IMG/VR virus record: IMGVR_UViG_2671181118_000002
Length of the DNA: 7,568 nt
Strand: one strand, 5' to 3'
DNA from: a virus
Taxonomy: Duplodnaviria > Heunggongvirae > Uroviricota > Caudoviricetes
The position numbers and the translations under genes were made by a program. This document shows positions 1 to 7,568 of the stretch, in pieces. Position 1 is the first letter of the stretch. Each line of letters opens with the position of its first letter. Under the pieces are notes generated by a model that had not been told where the DNA came from, ran no database searches, and saw only the letters and a list, made by a program, of their open reading frames with translations.

Positions 1-207
1 CTATGTCCTTGACGTCATAGCCGACTGGCCGATAAACCGGGTCGGCGAACTGCTCCCCTGGCGCGTAGCACTGCCGACTGAATAACACATCCCCGTCAAT
101 ACGGTTCTTGCTGCACGCTTACCGCCATTTCGAACGGCCTCCTGATGTTCTGAGGGTGCAGAAATCCCTCCGGTTAAGGATTAAATTTTTAACAGTGCTA
201 AATTTAA

Positions 208-564
208 TTATTCAGTTCTTGATTTTGCCGCCCTGCGTATCCGCGCTTTCGCGTTACGCTCAATCTGAATTAGCTTTTCTATATTTCTCCGCCTTTCCCG
301 TTCCTCCTGGCGCAAGAGCCTTACATCATCTGCCAGTCTGGTTTCTCTTTTCGCCACAGAGAGCATCCAGTCAAATGGCTCCACAACTGCACCGCAGATT
401 TTACAGCGGACCTGACGCTCTTTTTCGTCAACCCGGACAGAGGCGTGATGACAATATGGTCTTTCCGATGGCTCATAAAGAAAATTAACCTGATTACGTG
501 GGTCATCCTCTTTTACCGGAAATAAAACAATATTACTTAACTCATCTTCTGGTTTTATTTCCAT
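208..564 (-). CDS. Hypothetical prophage protein with a C-H-H...C-x-x-C zinc-ribbon-like motif and a basic, coiled-coil-like C-terminus; last gene of the leftward operon
   Basis: Six-frame ORF 208..621. ATG at 562-564 is preceded by AAAGGAGAGGAGC on the minus strand. An alternative GTG start at 619-621 directly abuts the TGA of the upstream gene. Protein contains PYCHHASV...RCKICG and an R/E-rich C-terminus. Confidence 0.6.
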   Translation of the reverse strand: MEIKPEDELSNIVLFPVKEDDPRNQVNFLYEPSERPYCHHASVRVDEKERQVRCKICGAVVEPFDWMLSVAKRETRLADDVRLLRQEERERRRNIEKLIQIERNAKARIRRAAKSRTE

Positions 565-621
565 GCTCCTCTCCTTTGATGCGAATGCCAGCGGCAATTG
601 AAGCCTGATAGCTAATTTCAC

Positions 622-1047
622 TCACAGCACCACCTCCTGAAAATTCCCCTGATAAAACGCCAGCACGCGCTGCATAACTTCGCTCTTCCGGCACTCGCTA
701 CAGATTATGTTCTGACGCCTGTCATAACGACGTATTTCTCCGTCTGGTAACGACCAGATAAGGTCCGGATCAACCACAGGTGTTTTTTTCTTCAGCTTTG
801 CCCTTGAGAGTTTTTTGCGGGCGTTTTGCCAGTCCTTACGAGCCTGTTCAGACGGGAATAACCCGTAACCAGAGTTGTATACATCACCACTGGCAACCAG
901 CTCTCTGGCGAGAACGCTCATCAGATATCTTGTCGCACCTGTCTTGGCTTCCAGTTGCCGTAACGTCTCGCGCCCACTCCGGCGTACTAGCTCAACAACC
1001 TGCCCTTTAATTTTTTCTCGCTCTTCTTGTGTAAAAACTTTTGCCAC
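622..1047 (-). CDS. Hypothetical prophage protein (141 aa), possibly winged-helix-like; function unknown
   Basis: Six-frame ORF. GTG start at 1045-1047 with AGGAGG 5 nt upstream (minus strand CAGGAGGGCTTGTG). Its stop is immediately adjacent to the GTG start option of the next gene, consistent with translational coupling. Confidence 0.65.
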   Translation of the reverse strand: MAKVFTQEEREKIKGQVVELVRRSGRETLRQLEAKTGATRYLMSVLARELVASGDVYNSGYGLFPSEQARKDWQNARKKLSRAKLKKKTPVVDPDLIWSLPDGEIRRYDRRQNIICSECRKSEVMQRVLAFYQGNFQEVVL

Positions 1048-1087
1048 AAGCCCTCCTGAAAATTACCTCATGACCTGAAATAAACAC

Positions 1088-2173
1088 TTACCCCCTGAAG
1101 CCTGGCGGAATTTCGGTATCCGGTTCAGAAACATGATTCACACAACGCTGGTTGTTCGTGCCGCTTACCGGGAGCAACCAGGGGTTTTCAAAATTCCGGT
1201 CCGGTCCAAAAAACGTCGTCGCTCGCTGAACAAATTCCGTTCCCGTTTTCCCGGTAGTCGCCAGGTATCTTGCGTAACGCCTCACGCCATCCAGCATGGC
1301 CTCTGGTGGCACCCCCTCGCGTAATCTGGCCTTCCAGGCACTGAAAGCGGATTTCTTCGGGTTTGCTCCGGCACGCAACGGGTATTCCCGCCAGACCTGT
1401 TCGAACACATCCGGATAATCCACTCGTCCCACAGGCTGCCCGGTGTTTTCCGGGACTACCTGATCGGCTTCCCGCTGAATGGCGGAATCGGCTTCAGGCT
1501 GCTGCAGTTGGTGTGATTGTTCCGGCCTTGCGGTCATCGCCTGCTGCACAGCGCCCGAATCGGCTTCCGGTGTCGTGCCTGCTGGCTGACCAGGATTGAC
1601 GTTCTGAACATCCCCTGCCTGGTTCGTGGCGATTTTTTCGCCATGAAGCATAGTATTTTTATCCTGCTCCTGTTCTTTCTCCTGTTCCTGTTCTTGGCTT
1701 AGAAGCCCCTTTAAAGCCTCTTCGAAGCCCCTTGCTGAATTCCGGCGATTATTCCGCCTCACATCCAGATGGAAATCCGTTTTATATCTGTCGTAAAAGG
1801 CTGACAGAAAGGCGTTTTCAGGTAATGATGCATACTCATTCCTGACACCTGCACAACGGTTATCTCCAGGCTTCAACGTTTCCCCAACCTGCCAGGCTGC
1901 CATTTCATGGACCCAGACCATCTCGGCATCATGGTCATAGCTACAAAAACCAGCTTCAACAGCCCTTTTAAGCCCCTTCGAAGCCCCTTCCGGACCAAGC
2001 CCGGTTTCATGAGCAAGGTACAAAACTGGCAGGTAATACAAACCCAACATATTTGCGTGAGGGGATGTCATCAGGTAAAAAGCAACAACTTGCGCTTCTG
2101 CACCCGCCTTTCTAAGTTCTCTCCCCGTTTCTCCCAGCCAGAATCGCGGGGAAACTTTTGCATAATCACGCAT
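1088..2173 (-). CDS. Putative phage replication-initiation protein (lambda O-like organisation: N-terminal domain, E/Q-rich low-complexity linker, C-terminal domain)
   Basis: Six-frame ORF 1088..2194. Preferred start is ATG at 2171-2173 preceded by GAGGTG; the ORF-track start at 2194 is a TTG. Sits after the cro-like and cII-like genes in the early operon. Contains a QEQEQEKEQEQ linker and iteron-like DNA repeats in the coding sequence. Family assignment is from memory of phage replication proteins and was not verified. Confidence 0.6.
   Translation of the reverse strand: MRDYAKVSPRFWLGETGRELRKAGAEAQVVAFYLMTSPHANMLGLYYLPVLYLAHETGLGPEGASKGLKRAVEAGFCSYDHDAEMVWVHEMAAWQVGETLKPGDNRCAGVRNEYASLPENAFLSAFYDRYKTDFHLDVRRNNRRNSARGFEEALKGLLSQEQEQEKEQEQDKNTMLHGEKIATNQAGDVQNVNPGQPAGTTPEADSGAVQQAMTARPEQSHQLQQPEADSAIQREADQVVPENTGQPVGRVDYPDVFEQVWREYPLRAGANPKKSAFSAWKARLREGVPPEAMLDGVRRYARYLATTGKTGTEFVQRATTFFGPDRNFENPWLLPVSGTNNQRCVNHVSEPDTEIPPGFRG
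1702..1734. repeat. Iteron-like cluster A: three ~11-bp direct repeats (GAAGCCCCTT / AAAGCCTCTT / GAAGCCCCTT) inside the replication gene
   Basis: Read directly: 1702-1711 gaagcccctt, 1713-1722 aaagcctctt, 1724-1733 gaagcccctt. The 11-bp period is not a multiple of 3, so the copies lie in different codon phases. Confidence 0.5.
1961..1990. repeat. Iteron-like cluster B: three tandem ~10-bp copies of AGCCCCTT-type repeat inside the replication gene
   Basis: Read directly: agccctttt (1961-1969), aagcccctt (1970-1978), gaagcccctt (1980-1989). Same motif and orientation as cluster A, about 260 bp away. Confidence 0.5.
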
Positions 2174-2198
2174 GTTCACCTCGTCTGGAGCCAAACCT

Positions 2199-2244
2199 TC
2201 CTCTGGTTATAATCTGTGATTCACTAATCAACAGAACCAGAGGA
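2199..2244 (+). promoter_or_regulatory. Candidate promoter/operator for the 131-aa gene: 10-bp perfect inverted repeat TCCTCTGGTT...AACCAGAGGA overlapping a TATAAT -10 hexamer and the downstream RBS
   Basis: Arms at 2199-2208 and 2235-2244 are exact reverse complements with a 26-bp spacer. TATAAT at 2208-2213. The right arm contains the AGGAGG Shine-Dalgarno of the ORF starting at 2253. No convincing -35 was found. Confidence 0.4.
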
Positions 2245-2252
2245 GGTTCGAA

Positions 2253-2648
2253 ATGGATTTTGCAACTATCACAAGTAGCGTTGTGTTGAGTGCGTGTGTT
2301 GCTGGCGTGGTTTCGCTGGTTAATGGTGCCTGGCAACGCAAATCGGAACGAACCATTGAAGCGCAACGCCGGGCTGCTGAAGCCAGAGCAAAAATAAGAG
2401 AAATGGCTCTCACCCTCGCATTGAAAGAATGGGAGCTCCACCAAACCATATCGAAGGCAAAGGGGTATGGTGTCAGCGGCCCAGAAGTTTACGTCTTTCG
2501 ATACTTTCGTATGCTCAACCTGATGGAGGAAGACAAATTCACGATTGAAAATCTCAGACTGATCCAGTACGACTCCATGTGTGCTGTTGCAGCAATTCAG
2601 GCAGAGATCGAGCGATATCGGGAGAAAAACGGCCTCCCGATGCCATAA
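2253..2648 (+). CDS. Membrane-anchored protein of unknown function (N-terminal hydrophobic helix, then a charged helical domain); encoded antisense to the surrounding early operon
   Basis: Six-frame ORF. ATG at 2253 with AGAGGAGG 6-7 nt upstream. Residues ~5-26 (ITSSVVLSACVAGVVSLVNGAW) are hydrophobic and followed by QRKSER. Not recognised as any family I know. Confidence 0.65.
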   Translation: MDFATITSSVVLSACVAGVVSLVNGAWQRKSERTIEAQRRAAEARAKIREMALTLALKEWELHQTISKAKGYGVSGPEVYVFRYFRMLNLMEEDKFTIENLRLIQYDSMCAVAAIQAEIERYREKNGLPMP

Positions 2649-2652
2649 ACAA

Positions 2653-2874
2653 TCAGCGTTTTTCATCTTTCCAAATCCTCATATCAGGCTTGCGCCCAAT
2701 GAACCGACGAAGACAATTTAAAGTCCATCGGGTGAAGTAATCCCTGAAACCAAAGAGATACCAGGTGAACAGATTCACGATAAAATGTCCGGCCAGAGCC
2801 CCACCAATACCACAGGCAAGAACAGTAAAAAAATCAGGTAGATTCACAGCCCCCTCCGTCATTGTTAACGCCAT
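2653..2874 (-). CDS. Small membrane protein (64-73 aa) with a long hydrophobic segment and a basic C-terminal tail; function unknown
   Basis: Six-frame ORF. Possible starts: ATG at 2872-2874 (8 nt after the upstream stop, weak SD) or GTG at 2845-2847 preceded by GGAGG with a 5-nt spacer. Hydrophobic stretch FFTVLACGIGGALAGHFIVNLFTWYLFGF. Its stop lies 4 nt from the stop of the convergent 2253..2648 gene. Confidence 0.55.
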   Translation of the reverse strand: MALTMTEGAVNLPDFFTVLACGIGGALAGHFIVNLFTWYLFGFRDYFTRWTLNCLRRFIGRKPDMRIWKDEKR

Positions 2875-2882
2875 CCGTGCTT

Positions 2883-3308
2883 TTAGTGCATCACCACGGC
2901 ATTTCCTGCAGGGCCACCACGGTTCATCTGATTGAAACCGGCAATCGCCACTGCGACAAAATCATCAGCGTCTCTCACCAGTCGTTCCCGCGTCTCCACC
3001 AGCTCCCGAAAATAGGCTGAACTGTGGCTGCGCATTCGGGCCACCAGCAAAGGTGGCATTGCCTTTTCGATCGCTGGTAACAACGCCTGAATTTTTTCAA
3101 CAGCATCAGGGGTGTCTTTCTCTACCCAGCGGAAAATTTTCTGTGTATTGCGAGCCAGGGCTTCCGGATGGCTGTCGTCATACAGTTCAGGAAACGTTAT
3201 ACCCAACTCAAAATAAGCCTGGGTTATTCCAGCTGCTGGAACTTTTTCGCCATCAGGACGCGCCCAGGCATTCATCGCCATGCGGATGTGTTCATGCTTG
3301 ATTTTCAT
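2883..3308 (-). CDS. YdaT-like protein (prophage CII-analog family)
   Basis: Six-frame ORF. ATG at 3306-3308 preceded by AGGAG. Overlaps the end of the upstream cro-like gene by 17 nt. N-terminus MKIKHEHI and the position straight after a YdaS/DicC-like gene match the ydaS-ydaT arrangement of Rac-type prophages (recalled, not searched). Confidence 0.65.
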   Translation of the reverse strand: MKIKHEHIRMAMNAWARPDGEKVPAAGITQAYFELGITFPELYDDSHPEALARNTQKIFRWVEKDTPDAVEKIQALLPAIEKAMPPLLVARMRSHSSAYFRELVETRERLVRDADDFVAVAIAGFNQMNRGGPAGNAVVMH

Positions 3309-3573
3309 GAATCAAGCTCCTAGAAAGTGGTTGTGTTAACGTTTTGGTATCTTCCAGCTCGGGCCAAATATTCATCCAATCAAAAGGCCTTAGTTGCTGA
3401 CGTGTAACTTCACCATTACTGGCTCGCTCAATAAGGACACATAACGATGCCCCTAACACTTGACCTTTACTCAATGCCTTTCTTAGATAACCGATGCTGG
3501 TACCACACTCGCATGCAAACATACGCTGTTCATCTGACGAAAGAGAATTGAGAAATATTCTTAATTCTTCCAT
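3292..3573 (-). CDS. Cro-like HTH regulator of the YdaS/DicC family
   Basis: Six-frame ORF. ATG at 3571-3573 with AAGGAG 6 nt upstream. Divergent from the repressor gene. Contains an HTH-like segment (GTSIGYLRKALSKGQ) and the C-terminal motif GEVTRQQLRPFDWMNIWPEL, which I recall as typical of YdaS/DicC-type proteins. Confidence 0.75.
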   Translation of the reverse strand: MEELRIFLNSLSSDEQRMFACECGTSIGYLRKALSKGQVLGASLCVLIERASNGEVTRQQLRPFDWMNIWPELEDTKTLTQPLSRSLIHENQA

Positions 3574-3598
3574 AGCTACTCCTTAGTAAACACAGCAA

Positions 3599-3680
3599 AG
3601 AATACCCACAGGTAAACAAAAGTCAATACCCACAGGTTGTTTACCTTGCAGTAATCGCATCTATTATTTACCTATGGACA
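3599..3680. promoter_or_regulatory. Divergent promoter/operator region between the cro-like and repressor genes, with repeated TACC-N4-GGTA-type operator motifs
   Basis: Direct repeat AATACCCACAGGT at 3601-3613 and 3625-3637. 10-bp inverted repeat AGGTAAACAA (3611-3620) / TTGTTTACCT (3637-3646). Candidate leftward promoter on the minus strand: TTGACT (3621-3626), ~16-bp spacer, TATTCT (3599-3604). Candidate rightward promoter: TTTACC (3640-3645), 16-bp spacer, TATTAT (3662-3667), ending 6 nt before the repressor ATG, which suggests a leaderless mRNA. Confidence 0.5.
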
Positions 3681-4093
3681 AATATGAATTTAGACGACAG
3701 CAACTCATCAAAATTCGTGATGAGAAATGCGATGGTAAAGCGGTTAACGTGGCCAGAAAGATCGGGCGCGAGCCTTCTTATGTATCAAGAATGTTGTACC
3801 CAGAGGGGAAAAAGGGAAAAAAACGGATCGCTGATGATATGGTGGAGATTATCGAAGAGTCCTTTGGGTTACCCCGGGGATGGATGGATGGTATCGTTTC
3901 ATCATCAACGAACACAGCCTCCAGTTATGAAACAAGGGTTCTAACGCCACGACAACGTATTTTTTTAGATCTCTTAGACGAACTGCCAGAAAGTGAAGCG
4001 GATAACTTATTAAAAACTCTTGAAGAGAAAAAACAGTATTACAATATGATCTACGAAGAAATCCGTAAAAAGAAAGCACAAAACGCATCATAG
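3674..4093 (+). CDS. Prophage repressor (CI/DicA-like); the C-terminal region resembles DicA, the N-terminal DNA-binding region does not
   Basis: Six-frame ORF 139 aa, divergent from the cro-like gene. HTH-like segment AVNVARKIGREPSYVSRML. C-terminal LTPRQRIFLDLLDELPESEADNLLKTLEE resembles the DicA C-terminal pattern as I recall it. No Shine-Dalgarno upstream, consistent with a leaderless start. Confidence 0.7.
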   Translation: MDKYEFRRQQLIKIRDEKCDGKAVNVARKIGREPSYVSRMLYPEGKKGKKRIADDMVEIIEESFGLPRGWMDGIVSSSTNTASSYETRVLTPRQRIFLDLLDELPESEADNLLKTLEEKKQYYNMIYEEIRKKKAQNAS

Positions 4094-4135
4094 CTCACCA
4101 AACAACTAGTCACCAGTTAAGACACCGCAAAAAGT

Positions 4136-4176
4136 TACCCATGGGTATTTACTTTTTAAATACCTATGGGTATCCT
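4136..4176 (+). promoter_or_regulatory. Operator/promoter region upstream of the dicB-type operon: a perfect 12-bp palindrome and a near-copy of the same motif
   Basis: TACCCATGGGTA at 4136-4147 is its own reverse complement. TACCTATGGGTA at 4161-4172, 25 bp away. Same TACC-N4-GGTA motif as in the 3599-3680 region. Candidate -35 TTTACT (4148-4153) and -10 TATCCT (4171-4176). Confidence 0.45.
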
Positions 4177-4358
4177 TCTTTTCATACCAACCCACCCCGC
4201 CCCACAGAATGCAGGGCAATACTTCGAGTTACCAGGCAGTGGTCAGGGGTTAAGTAGCCAGCCCGAGGCGTAAGAACATGACGGCAGGGTTCAACTTTAA
4301 TAACTATGCAGCAGGTTTTTGTTCCGCTACCCCGGCGTTAAGGGGAAATGAGGTCAGC

Positions 4359-4514
4359 ATGGATACTATCGATCTTGGCAACAACGAATCTCTGGTGTAC
4401 GGCGTATTTCCAAACCAGGACGGCACGTTCACCGCAATGACGTATACCAAAAGCAAAACGTTTAAAACCGAAAATGGTGCCCGTCGCTGGCTGGAAAGAA
4501 ACTCAGGTGAGTGA
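4359..4514 (+). CDS. ydfA: YdfA-like small protein (51 aa), first gene of the dicB-type operon
   Basis: Within six-frame ORF 4278..4514. ATG at 4359-4361 preceded by GAGGT gives a 51-aa product (MDTIDLGNNESLVYGVFPNQDG...) matching the size and position of Qin ydfA. An upstream ATG at 4278 would give 78 aa. Confidence 0.65.
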   Translation: MDTIDLGNNESLVYGVFPNQDGTFTAMTYTKSKTFKTENGARRWLERNSGE

Positions 4515-4515
4515 T

Positions 4516-4644
4516 ATGGATTTCGACACAATCATGGAAAAGGCTTACGAAGAATACTTCGAAGGCCTTGCCGAAGGCGAAGAAGCTCTCAGCTTCAGTG
4601 AGTTTAAACAGGCGCTTTCCAGTTCGGCAAAATCTAACGGCTGA
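4516..4644 (+). CDS. ydfB: YdfB-like small protein (42 aa)
   Basis: Not in the ORF track (below its size cutoff); translated by hand. ATG at 4516-4518, 1 nt after the ydfA-like TGA, with AGGTGA upstream. Product MDFDTIMEKAYEEYFEGLAEGEEALSFSEFKQALSSSAKSNG; TGA at 4642-4644. Confidence 0.65.
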   Translation: MDFDTIMEKAYEEYFEGLAEGEEALSFSEFKQALSSSAKSNG

Positions 4645-4673
4645 TAAGCGAAACAGCACCGCGAGGAATCAGT

Positions 4674-4892
4674 ATGCAGAAACGAGAACCCGTCATCATC
4701 GCGCCAGACTATACCGATGATGAACTTTATGAGTGGATGCGCCAGAAAATTAATGCAGCGCAGGATCTGAAATGGGCTAATGAAGCCAGGGCTAAGCAGG
4801 CTGAAAATCTGTCCGCTCTGGAGCAGGATATCACCAGGCTGGAAAAAGCAGCGGCATTAAGCATTGCCAGAATGATTACATACCCGCGTTAA
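4674..4892 (+). CDS. ydfC: YdfC-like small protein (72 aa)
   Basis: Six-frame ORF. ATG at 4674 with GAGGAA and a 5-nt spacer. Size and position between ydfB-like and DicF match the Qin dicB operon. Confidence 0.65.
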   Translation: MQKREPVIIAPDYTDDELYEWMRQKINAAQDLKWANEARAKQAENLSALEQDITRLEKAAALSIARMITYPR

Positions 4893-5232
4893 TAGCTAAC
4901 CAACGAAGCTAAGGTTGGTAATTAAGGAGTTCTCCACGGGTGAGGTGGAGTGCGTGCGCCGGACACGGGTGAGCATCCGGCACTGACAGTTTACTGAAAG
5001 GATATTTCCATGAAAAGTCAGACCATAACGCGAAAGCGCACGGCGAGGTAGCTGGTTCATAGATAACCTGTCGTTAAATTTTCGTCGACCGTGCGCTTCC
5101 GGTTGTGGCACTCCGCGAAATGGCGCGGCGGTAAGTATGGCGGGGTTATTCCTTCCCCGTTGAGGACATCGGGTTGTCAGGTTGACCATACGCTTAAGTG
5201 ACAACCCCGCTGCAACGCCCTCTGTTATCAAT

Positions 5233-5285
5233 TTTCTGGTGACGTTTGGCGGTATCAGTTTTACTCCGTGGCTGCTCTGCCGCCC
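5233..5285 (+). ncRNA. dicF: DicF small regulatory RNA
   Basis: TTTCTGGTGACGTTTGGCGGTATCAGTTTTACTCCGTGGCTGCTCTGCCGCCC followed by TTTTT matches the DicF sequence as I recall it, possibly with one substitution. Lies between ydfC-like and dicB, as in the Qin prophage. Confidence 0.85.
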
Positions 5286-5290
5286 TTTTT
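5249..5290 (+). terminator. Intrinsic terminator-like 3' hairpin of DicF with T-run
   Basis: GGCGG (5249-5253) pairs with CCGCC (5280-5284) around an imperfect inner stem; TTTTT at 5286-5290. Confidence 0.5.
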
Positions 5291-5295
5291 AAAGT

Positions 5296-5442
5296 GAATT
5301 TTGTGATGCGGTGAATGCGGCTCAGCGCACGCGGAACAGTTAAAACCAAAAACAGTGTTATGGGTGGATTCTCTGTATCCGGCGTTAATTGTTAACTGGT
5401 TAACGTCACCTGGAGGCACCAGGCACCGCATCACAAAATTCA
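5296..5442 (+). repeat. 18-bp perfect long-range inverted repeat between the DicF 3' end and the dicB RBS; candidate RNase III processing stem
   Basis: GAATTTTGTGATGCGGTG at 5296-5313 and its exact reverse complement CACCGCATCACAAAATTC at 5425-5442. Confidence 0.5.
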
Positions 5443-5459
5443 TTGTTGAGGACGCGATA

Positions 5460-5648
5460 ATGGAAACGTTATTACCAAACGTTAATACGTCTGAAGGTTG
5501 TTTTGAAATTGGTGTCACTATCAGTAACCCTGTATTTACTGAAGATGCCATTAACAAGAGAAAACACGAACGGGAGTTATTAAATAAAATATGCATTCTT
5601 TCAATGCTGGCCCGTTTACGTCCGATACAAAAAGGATGCTGGCAATGA
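5460..5648 (+). CDS. dicB: DicB cell-division inhibitor (62 aa)
   Basis: Within six-frame ORF 5355..5648. ATG at 5460-5462 preceded by GAGGA gives METLLPNVNTSEGCFEIGVTISNPVFTEDAINKRKHERELLNKICILSMLARLRPIQKGCWQ, recognised as DicB. Directly downstream of DicF. Confidence 0.85.
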   Translation: METLLPNVNTSEGCFEIGVTISNPVFTEDAINKRKHERELLNKICILSMLARLRPIQKGCWQ

Positions 5649-5836
5649 ATACAGCATTTGCACTTGTTCTGACAGTTTTTCTTGTTTCCGGAGAGCCAGT
5701 TGATATTGCAGTCAGTGTTCACAGGACAATGCAGGAGTGTATGACTGCAGCAACCGAACAGAAAATTCCCGGTAACTGTTACCCGGTCGATAAAGTTATT
5801 CACCAGGATAATATCGAAATCCCGGCAGGTCTTTAA
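5645..5836 (+). CDS. ydfD: YdfD-like small membrane/lysis protein (63 aa)
   Basis: Within six-frame ORF 5591..5836. ATG at 5645-5647 overlaps the dicB TGA (ATGA). Product MNTAFALVLTVFLVSGEPVDIAVSVHRTMQECMTAATEQKIPGNCYPVDKVIHQDNIEIPAGL. Confidence 0.8.
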   Translation: MNTAFALVLTVFLVSGEPVDIAVSVHRTMQECMTAATEQKIPGNCYPVDKVIHQDNIEIPAGL

Positions 5837-5929
5837 AACAGTTCCGTAATAAATATCCGGTTTCATTCTTATATGCCAGCAATGGCAGGGATTTGTTCAT
5901 CCTTAAATCTGTCATGAGGTTAAAACAAA

Positions 5930-6868
5930 ATGAGTAAAGTCTTTATTTGCGCCGCCATTCCTGACGAACTGGCAACAAGGGAAGAAGGCGCTGTGGCTGT
6001 AGCCACAGCTATTGAAGCTGGCGACGAACGCCGTGCTCGAGCAAAATTTCACTGGCAATTCCTGGAACATTATCCGGCTGCTCAGGACTGCGCTTATAAA
6101 TTTATTATCTGCGAGGATAAACCTGGCATACCCCGCCCTGCCCTCGATTCATGGGATGCTGAATATATGCAGGAAAACCGCTGGGATGAGGATTCTGCTT
6201 CTTTTGTCCCGGTTGAGACTGAATCCGATCTGATGAACGTCACTTTTGACAAGCTGGCCCCTGAAGTACAGAACGCTCTCATGGTTAAGTTCGACACATG
6301 TGAAAACATCACCGTTGATATGGTTATTAGCGCACAGGAATTGTTGCAGGAAGACATGGCAACATTCAACGGACATATCGTTGAAGCGTTGATGAAAATG
6401 CCAGAAGTTAACGCCATGTATCCGGAGCTTAAGCTGCATGCCATCGGGTGGGTTAAGCATAAATGTAAGCCTGGTGCCAAATGGCCCGAAATTCAGGCAG
6501 AGATGCGCATCTGGAAAAAACGTCGCGAAGGTGAACGCAAGGAAACCGGAAAATACACGTCTGTTGTTGATCTCGCCCGCGCCAGAAGGTCATTGCTGCC
6601 ATTCATCGCGAATACAAGCAGACATGGAAAACACTGGATGACGAACTGGCCTACGCTCTCTGGCCTGGTGATGTGGATGCCGGAAACATTGACGGCAGCA
6701 TCCATCGCTGGGCAAAAAATGAAGTTATCGACAACGACCGCGAAGACTGGAAGCGTATCTCGGCATCAATGCGCAAACAGCCTGATGCCCTTCGCTACGA
6801 CCGCCAGACTATTTTTGGCCTTGTCCGTGAACGTCCGATCGACATTCACAAAGACCCTGTGGCACTGA
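5930..6868 (+). CDS. ydfE: YdfE-like prophage protein; only the first ~215 codons look like genuine coding sequence, after which the frame appears shifted (possible pseudogene or fusion)
   Basis: Six-frame ORF. ATG at 5930 with GAGG upstream. Translation is protein-like up to ...VVDLARAR (~6585); the remainder is W/M/H/T-rich and unnatural, while the -1 frame becomes open and protein-like from 6571. Confidence 0.55.
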   Translation: MSKVFICAAIPDELATREEGAVAVATAIEAGDERRARAKFHWQFLEHYPAAQDCAYKFIICEDKPGIPRPALDSWDAEYMQENRWDEDSASFVPVETESDLMNVTFDKLAPEVQNALMVKFDTCENITVDMVISAQELLQEDMATFNGHIVEALMKMPEVNAMYPELKLHAIGWVKHKCKPGAKWPEIQAEMRIWKKRREGERKETGKYTSVVDLARARRSLLPFIANTSRHGKHWMTNWPTLSGLVMWMPETLTAASIAGQKMKLSTTTAKTGSVSRHQCANSLMPFATTARLFLALSVNVRSTFTKTLWH

Positions 6869-7568
6869 ACAAATACATTACTGAATACCTGACTACAAAG
6901 GGCGTGTTTGAAGATGAAGGAAGAAATCAGAGCGCAACTGATACTCTCTCGTCGCCAGTACCAGAAACTGATGCAGTGGAAACGGCAATTCCGGACAACG
7001 AAAAAACCGAATGCAAAGTGGAAGTCGAACCATCTGTAGAGCGTGAGGGGCCGTTCTACTTCCTCTTCACCGACAAGGATAGCGAAAAATACGGTCGCGC
7101 AAACAAACTTTCTGGTCTGGAAAAAGCACTAGCCCTGGGAGCTACGGAAATCACAAAAGAGGAATACTTCGCACGTAAAAACGGCACGTACTCAGGTTCA
7201 CAACAAAATACTGGTGCATCTGACACGACCGCACAACCAGAGCCGGTAAAAGTTACCGCTGACGAAGTAAACAAAATTATGCAGGCAGCCAATATCAGCC
7301 AGCCTGACGCCGATAAGTTGCTTGCTGCATCACGTGGTGAATTTGTTGAAGGGATTAGTGACCCGAATGATCCGAAATGGGTTAAGGGGATCCAGACCCG
7401 CGATTCTGTGAACCAGAACCAGCATGAATCGGAACGGAACTACCAAAAAGCGGAACAAAACAGCACAAATGCGTTACAAAACGAGCCAGAAACGAAACAG
7501 CCTGAACCAGTGGCGCAACAGGAAGTGGAAAAAGTCTGCACCGCCTGCGGTCAGACCGGCGGCGGCAA
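6571..7568 (+). CDS. Long acidic ORF (at least 332 codons, 3' end beyond the window); either the frameshifted continuation of the ydfE-like gene or the N-terminal part of a larger early-region protein
   Basis: Frame with codons starting at 6571, 6574 and so on has no stop through 7568, shows E. coli-like codon use, and has no ATG with a Shine-Dalgarno near its 5' end (first ATG at 6769). Checked by hand codon by codon. Confidence 0.5.

Follow-up and report, generated by a model that had tools for sequence, protein, structure and literature searches.

Probable inactivation of the early-left exonuclease gene of a lambdoid prophage by a 43-nt deletion

The DNA analysed here, a stretch of 7,568 nt referred to as the window, ends in two long open reading frames that lie in different phases, and the question is whether these represent two genes, one gene joined by recoding or one gene that has been broken. 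The upstream ORF (5930..6868, + strand) starts with ATG, ends with TGA and encodes 312 aa, with a GAGG located 10 nt upstream of the start codon. Three-frame translation identifies a second frame, with codon starts at 6571, 6574 and so on, in which the last stop codon ends at 6570 and which is stop-free from there to the last base of the window (7568), so that it shares about 300 nt (6571-6868) with the upstream ORF. An earlier note, made from the sequence alone, had reported both this -1 frame, open from 6571 onwards, and a protein-like frame from 5930 that turns compositionally odd at 6571-6590; both descriptions are borne out. It offered a 1-nt indel pseudogene, a sequencing error or one large early-region gene as explanations, and a RecE-like exonuclease as the possible identity.

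Positions 5930-7568 were compared by megablast with 5,426 complete Escherichia coli genomes, and matches were found in 4,778 of these. The 30 matches listed cover the whole query at 98-99% identity, and always fall into two pieces, with 1682 nt of subject aligned to 1639 nt of query. The gene is frequently multicopy (median 2 copies per genome, up to 10), and the intact copies inspected each consist of one 2472-nt CDS (823 aa) annotated as 'exonuclease' or '3'-5' exonuclease'. The downstream part of the window gene shares 98-99% DNA identity with the corresponding part of this single annotated CDS among the matches listed from complete genomes. Since thousands of genomes contain the counterpart of the downstream frame within one annotated CDS, the frame change is no chance pattern. 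None of the homologs in the loci retrieved is annotated as two genes; the two separate genes that the earlier note had named as evidence against its reading were therefore not seen, and its suggestion of one large early-region gene holds.

Alignment with intact homologs, which had been proposed as the means of locating the indel, places the frame break at 6586|6587, within the interval 6571-6590 given in the earlier note. Global alignment with the loci of strain D1 and ETEC H10407 (L001/L002) shows a single 43-nt gap at this junction (6586..6587, + strand) and no other indel. Relative to the allele of strain E2855 (AP018796) the deletion is exact, and the missing bases are CCAATCAACAGCACACTGAAAATTCAACAGGAAAAATCAGCCC, encoding approximately 14 residues (TNQQHTENSTGKIS) plus one extra base; across the junction the window reads GCGCCAGAAGGTCATT. 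Because 43 equals 42+1, the frame shifts by -1. The lesion is thus a frameshifting indel in a pseudogene, as the earlier note had considered, although of 43 nt rather than 1 nt, and a clean loss of this size makes a base-calling error much less likely than that note allowed.

Codons 1-219 (5930..6586, + strand) are native, correspond to a YdfE-type N-terminal domain, and are collinear with the first 657 nt of the 2472-nt CDS in L001 and L002; the encoded residues share 97% identity with positions 1-219 of P0121, an 823-aa representative. Codons 220-312 (6587..6868, + strand) form an out-of-frame tail of 93 missense codons closed by the TGA at 6866-6868. Native codons pick up again at 6589 in the other frame, and the segment 6589..7568 (+ strand), collinear with L001/L002 7201-8182, contains ancestral codons 235-560 out of phase with the start, corresponding to a RecE-like acidic middle region. 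The window copy runs off at ancestral codon 560, before the exonuclease domain (ancestral residues 642-813), so that the 3' third of the gene lies beyond the window. When the 43 nt are re-inserted, the sequence reads through 560 codons with zero stops, which makes the deletion the sole lesion that the window contains. Relative to the two alleles used for comparison, the repaired frame shows 8-19 synonymous and 9 non-synonymous codon differences. The position of the deletion, the single-ORF ancestral state and the domain content of the intact homologs are all directly visible in these comparisons.

Direct inspection of seven alleles (four complete genomes and three metagenome contigs) showed the 43 nt in each, and all eight other alleles aligned across the site contain the segment. 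The K-12 Qin alignment spans 43 more bases than the window, so Qin also carries the segment. A search for a deletion mechanism through microhomology, repeats or a hairpin gave no pointer to any: the junction shows 0 nt of microhomology, and neither a direct repeat nor a hairpin bridges the endpoints (DNA fold z-score of 0.39).

We therefore favour, with a probability of roughly 0.8, the reading that a private 43-nt deletion at 6586|6587 broke the large early-left exonuclease gene of a lambdoid (Qin/Rac-like) prophage. Translation from the ATG at 5930 would yield the 219-residue N-terminal domain followed by 93 missense residues, terminating at 6866-6868, while the RecE-like middle and the putative C-terminal DEDD 3'-5' exonuclease domain would no longer be translated from the native start. 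With the downstream domains cut off in this manner, the gene is a pseudogene or, at most, the source of an N-terminal fragment. Set against the features of a YdfE-type exonuclease, the window gene possesses the N-terminal domain (residues 1-219, on the basis of the identity to P0121 and the collinear DNA) as well as the RecE-like acidic middle region (NF007259, E 4e-54), and lacks the single uninterrupted frame as a consequence of the deletion, making it a disrupted member of the family (pseudogene).

A 48-mer spanning the junction occurs in none of the 5,426 complete E. coli genomes, and the junction is likewise absent from the GTDB species representatives, IMG/VR and the JGI metagenomes. An exact-protein look-up of the 312-aa product returned no record. 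With neither junction nor product found elsewhere in the collections scanned, the allele is private. An allele-specific 39-mer identified five metagenome contigs, four of which extend past the site; both flanks could be placed in three of those four, and each of the three contains the 43 nt. The fifth contig, L011, is the one closest to the window and stops short of the junction.

The uniqueness of the allele would also fit a sequencing or assembly artefact, in which the real genome carries the 2472-nt gene intact and assembly or consensus calling dropped the 43 nt. The copy number of the gene (median 2, up to 10 per genome) would tangle assembly graphs, and the contig nearest to the window in sequence, L011 (QZLZ01002405.1), ends 2 nt before the junction, its final part belonging to another allele. 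However, base-calling errors do not typically remove 43 nt cleanly from sequence free of repeats and homopolymers, and a graph misjoin requires a shared k-mer, whereas the flanks share none (0 nt at the junction). The polymorphic site AGA[G/A][T/C]C, moreover, accounts for a graph branch in L011 without any deletion. We consider an artefact improbable, although it is the most serious competitor, and the 43-nt loss is probably a genuine mutation.

Positions 1-6466 of L011 correspond to window positions 119-6584 at 99.88% identity. Over its last ~120 nt the contig carries a different, K-12-like allele, with three mismatches around window positions 6470-6485, and its end coincides with the polymorphic site. 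Branching of the assembly graph between paralogous prophage copies is the most likely cause of this end, which is uninformative with respect to the deletion, although such branching probably explains the coincidence of contig end and junction only in part.

That the mutation is genuine, that it is recent and that exonuclease function has been lost are each inferred from sequence comparison; taken together, the deletion is most likely private, recent and inactivating.

The N-terminal domain is the part that remains in frame. Residues 1-219 have no match in the local Pfam library or in PADLOC; homologs in a large protein collection carry precomputed PF27430 and PF27432 matches, which the local Pfam library did not reproduce. 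A HMMER search of 1.84 billion representatives places the domain at the N-terminus of proteins of 600-980 aa, down to ~22% identity. In a Pfam scan of 23 such proteins, PF16473 forms the C-terminal end of the E. coli representative and the PDDEXK-like PF12684 that of one further protein, and the majority match no Pfam family. The aligned proteins P0121-P0199 (alignment A2) are large proteins headed by the YdfE-type domain with differing C-terminal parts, and the alignment consensus of distant members contains a KKSLTDA...ALS.LG motif. An AlphaFold2 model of the 219 residues has a mean pLDDT of 86.6, which declines to ~60 in the final 20 positions (200-219), the part in which the deletion lies. 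Foldseek against viral models returned nothing at E <= 0.001, and the fold searches gave no convincing structural relative and no strong match to a solved structure. In the literature on ydfE and on Rv2179c in phages we found no function and no experimental work for this protein family.

The domain might be an autonomous module with its own function, the retention of which would be selected while the exonuclease is discarded, as opposed to decay at random. Such a view would draw on the repeated retention of the domain, by the 43-nt deletion after residue 219, by the IS2E insertion after ~255 codons in K-12 and by public frameshift alleles of 324-326 aa, as well as on distant relatives that fuse it to different nucleases (PF16473 or PF12684). 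We regard this as quite unlikely. Slightly less probable still is a split but functional gene, with an N-terminal fragment that works by itself and/or internal initiation that supplies the downstream part together with the exonuclease domain. The 219 residues are modelled with confidence and the break falls where that confidence drops; the downstream frame is open and contains an in-frame GTG (6673) and ATG (6769). RecE retains activity when truncated at its N-terminus, and a prophage exonuclease can thus do without a large N-terminal region. However, neither GTG 6673 nor ATG 6769, the first candidate starts in this frame, is preceded by a convincing Shine-Dalgarno sequence, in agreement with the earlier note, which had seen no nearby start with one. 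Nor is any homolog annotated as two genes, and in full-length members of the family the N-terminal domain stays joined to a long C-terminal portion. As the allele has been seen once only, it gives no sign of selection for the split form.

The 324-326 aa alleles end with the same out-of-frame tail as the window product. In the intact gene the +1 frame runs for 171 codons without a stop, and different frameshift alleles consequently share one TGA. This stretch was considered as an overlapping +1-frame gene and rejected as a chance feature, being broken in the more divergent L007 allele. Among the public alleles, P0005, P0007, P0014 and P0016 change frame near an A7 run (window 6513-6519); P0007 also shifts near an A6 run (6713-6718), with apparently three frame shifts. 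These homopolymer-run alleles give products of 303-326 aa and look like sequencing errors or slippage mutations, unlike the 43-nt deletion of the window.

A programmed -1 ribosomal frameshift or other recoding, which anywhere within the ~300-nt overlap would join the two frames into a continuous product, can be excluded: no in-phase X_XXY_YYZ slippery heptamer occurs between 6560 and 6868 (the earlier note had found none at the junction), the two-frame arrangement is not conserved and occurs in no homolog examined, all of which carry the 43 nt and read in a single frame where uninterrupted, and the long +1 frame left open in intact copies is itself not conserved, being broken in L007.

The upstream context is the same as in the related loci. 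The DicF sRNA (5234-5285, + strand; Rfam RF00039, 75 bits against a gathering score of 48), dicB (5460-5648, +) and ydfD (5645-5836, +), the latter two from the ORF list, form the upstream context in the same leftward early operon as the exonuclease gene. In the uninterrupted homologs retrieved, the CDS lies between dicB-ydfD and xis-int, and the order dicB-ydfD-exonuclease is annotated in six of six related loci retrieved. The upstream half of the order dicF-dicB-ydfD, exonuclease, xis-int is present in the window, which ends before the xis-int part. The Qin-type division-inhibition operon (DicF-dicB-ydfD) located directly upstream of the broken gene is apparently intact.

Elsewhere in the window, a 131-aa ORF (2253-2648, +) gives a full-length PADLOC match to PD-Lambda-6 (E 9e-90, 1-131/131) and no Pfam match; PD-Lambda-6 is a candidate single-gene anti-phage defence protein. 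The ORF lies on the opposite strand, between a replisome-organizer gene and a ydaT-like gene. A ~1.2-kb segment around it (about 1663-2900) is missing from the best whole-window relatives and occurs at >=99% identity in only 15 of the 5,426 complete genomes. The first ~128 nt of the window match neither L011 nor the best E. coli genomes, all of which start at about 119-120, and this region of ~120-128 nt looks like a mosaic boundary between prophage modules.

Judged from its sequence matches, the intact protein is a mosaic of a YdfE-type N-terminal domain, a RecE-like middle and a C-terminal DEDD-type 3'-5' exonuclease. The last of these corresponds to PF16473 (Rv2179c-like, DEDD) at residues 642-813 of the intact homolog, beyond the window. 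In a BLASTP comparison, residues 262-625 of the intact homolog align with K-12 RecE 278-591 at 40% identity (E 3e-63), with near identity over the Cys-rich CxxCG...CPDCG stretch and no significant alignment past RecE residue 591. The translation of window 6571-7567 matches positions 271-537 of NF007259 (RecE / exodeoxyribonuclease VIII; E 4e-54) with 183.9 bits, while the intact homolog scores 285.4 bits over model positions 271-602 only; both values are far below the whole-protein equivalog cut-off of 1269 bits, and neither protein qualifies as RecE by this model. The C-terminus of the intact homolog is PF16473/RNase_T-like and not the PD-(D/E)XK 5'-3' nuclease that characterises RecE. A PDB search with the intact homolog returned only 8kel and 8ken, both named 'Exodeoxyribonuclease', with 8kel the best, and no RecE structure was matched. 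In the four related loci shown through to xis, no recT follows the exonuclease gene and xis and int come directly after it, whereas in the Rac prophage recE is followed by recT. As the RecE catalytic domain is unmatched and the NF007259 match is confined to 271-602, the gene is RecE-related in the middle only. The RecE-like exonuclease considered possible by the earlier note thus survives for the acidic middle region and fails, in the intact homologs and related loci, for the catalytic domain and for a neighbouring recT.

The window gene is an ordinary pseudogene in a decaying lambdoid prophage. Its correct annotation is a single frameshifted pseudogene of a common prophage exonuclease, in place of 'ydfE' with a separate orphan ORF of acidic composition. 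Provided that the deletion is real, it marks a particular lineage, and the exonuclease of the early-left region has been lost, or is being lost, from this prophage, as happened to Qin in K-12. The significance of the broken copy beyond annotation is small; more interesting is the intact family, an unusual mosaic that is very common in E. coli.

Three known systems frame this conclusion. The intact 823-aa exonuclease (WP_000048605.1 of ETEC H10407; WP_073514550.1 of strain D1) shares 98-99% DNA identity with the window gene over all 1639 nt and has the same flanking genes, but is an uninterrupted ORF that includes PF16473, while the window copy is frameshifted and ends before this domain. RecE of Rac is likewise encoded by a large early-left prophage exonuclease gene, and the middle regions are homologous, yet its N-terminal domain is unrelated to the YdfE type and its nuclease is a PD-(D/E)XK 5'-3' enzyme as opposed to the DEDD 3'-5' type of the intact homologs. 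The third system is ydfE (b1577) of the K-12 Qin cryptic prophage, which is the same gene in the same neighbourhood (dicF-dicB-ydfD-ydfE), Qin being ~96% identical in DNA to window 4321-6653; the term 'ydfE-like' used in the earlier note was apt, as K-12 ydfE is the IS2E-truncated 5' remnant of this gene. It too is non-functional, keeps only the N-terminal domain and is annotated as a pseudogene. In strain E2855 (L003, NZ_AP018796.1, 2431-6215) the exonuclease gene is split by an IS1203 insertion, and disruption of this gene thus recurs independently (IS1203 in E2855, IS2E in K-12); together with the several public frameshift alleles, these cases show that its decay is common. The lesions of the window gene and K-12 ydfE are distinct: K-12 retains the 43 nt and is truncated by IS2E after ~255 native codons with the remainder gone, whereas the window gene has lost 43 nt after codon 219 and still has its downstream coding sequence.
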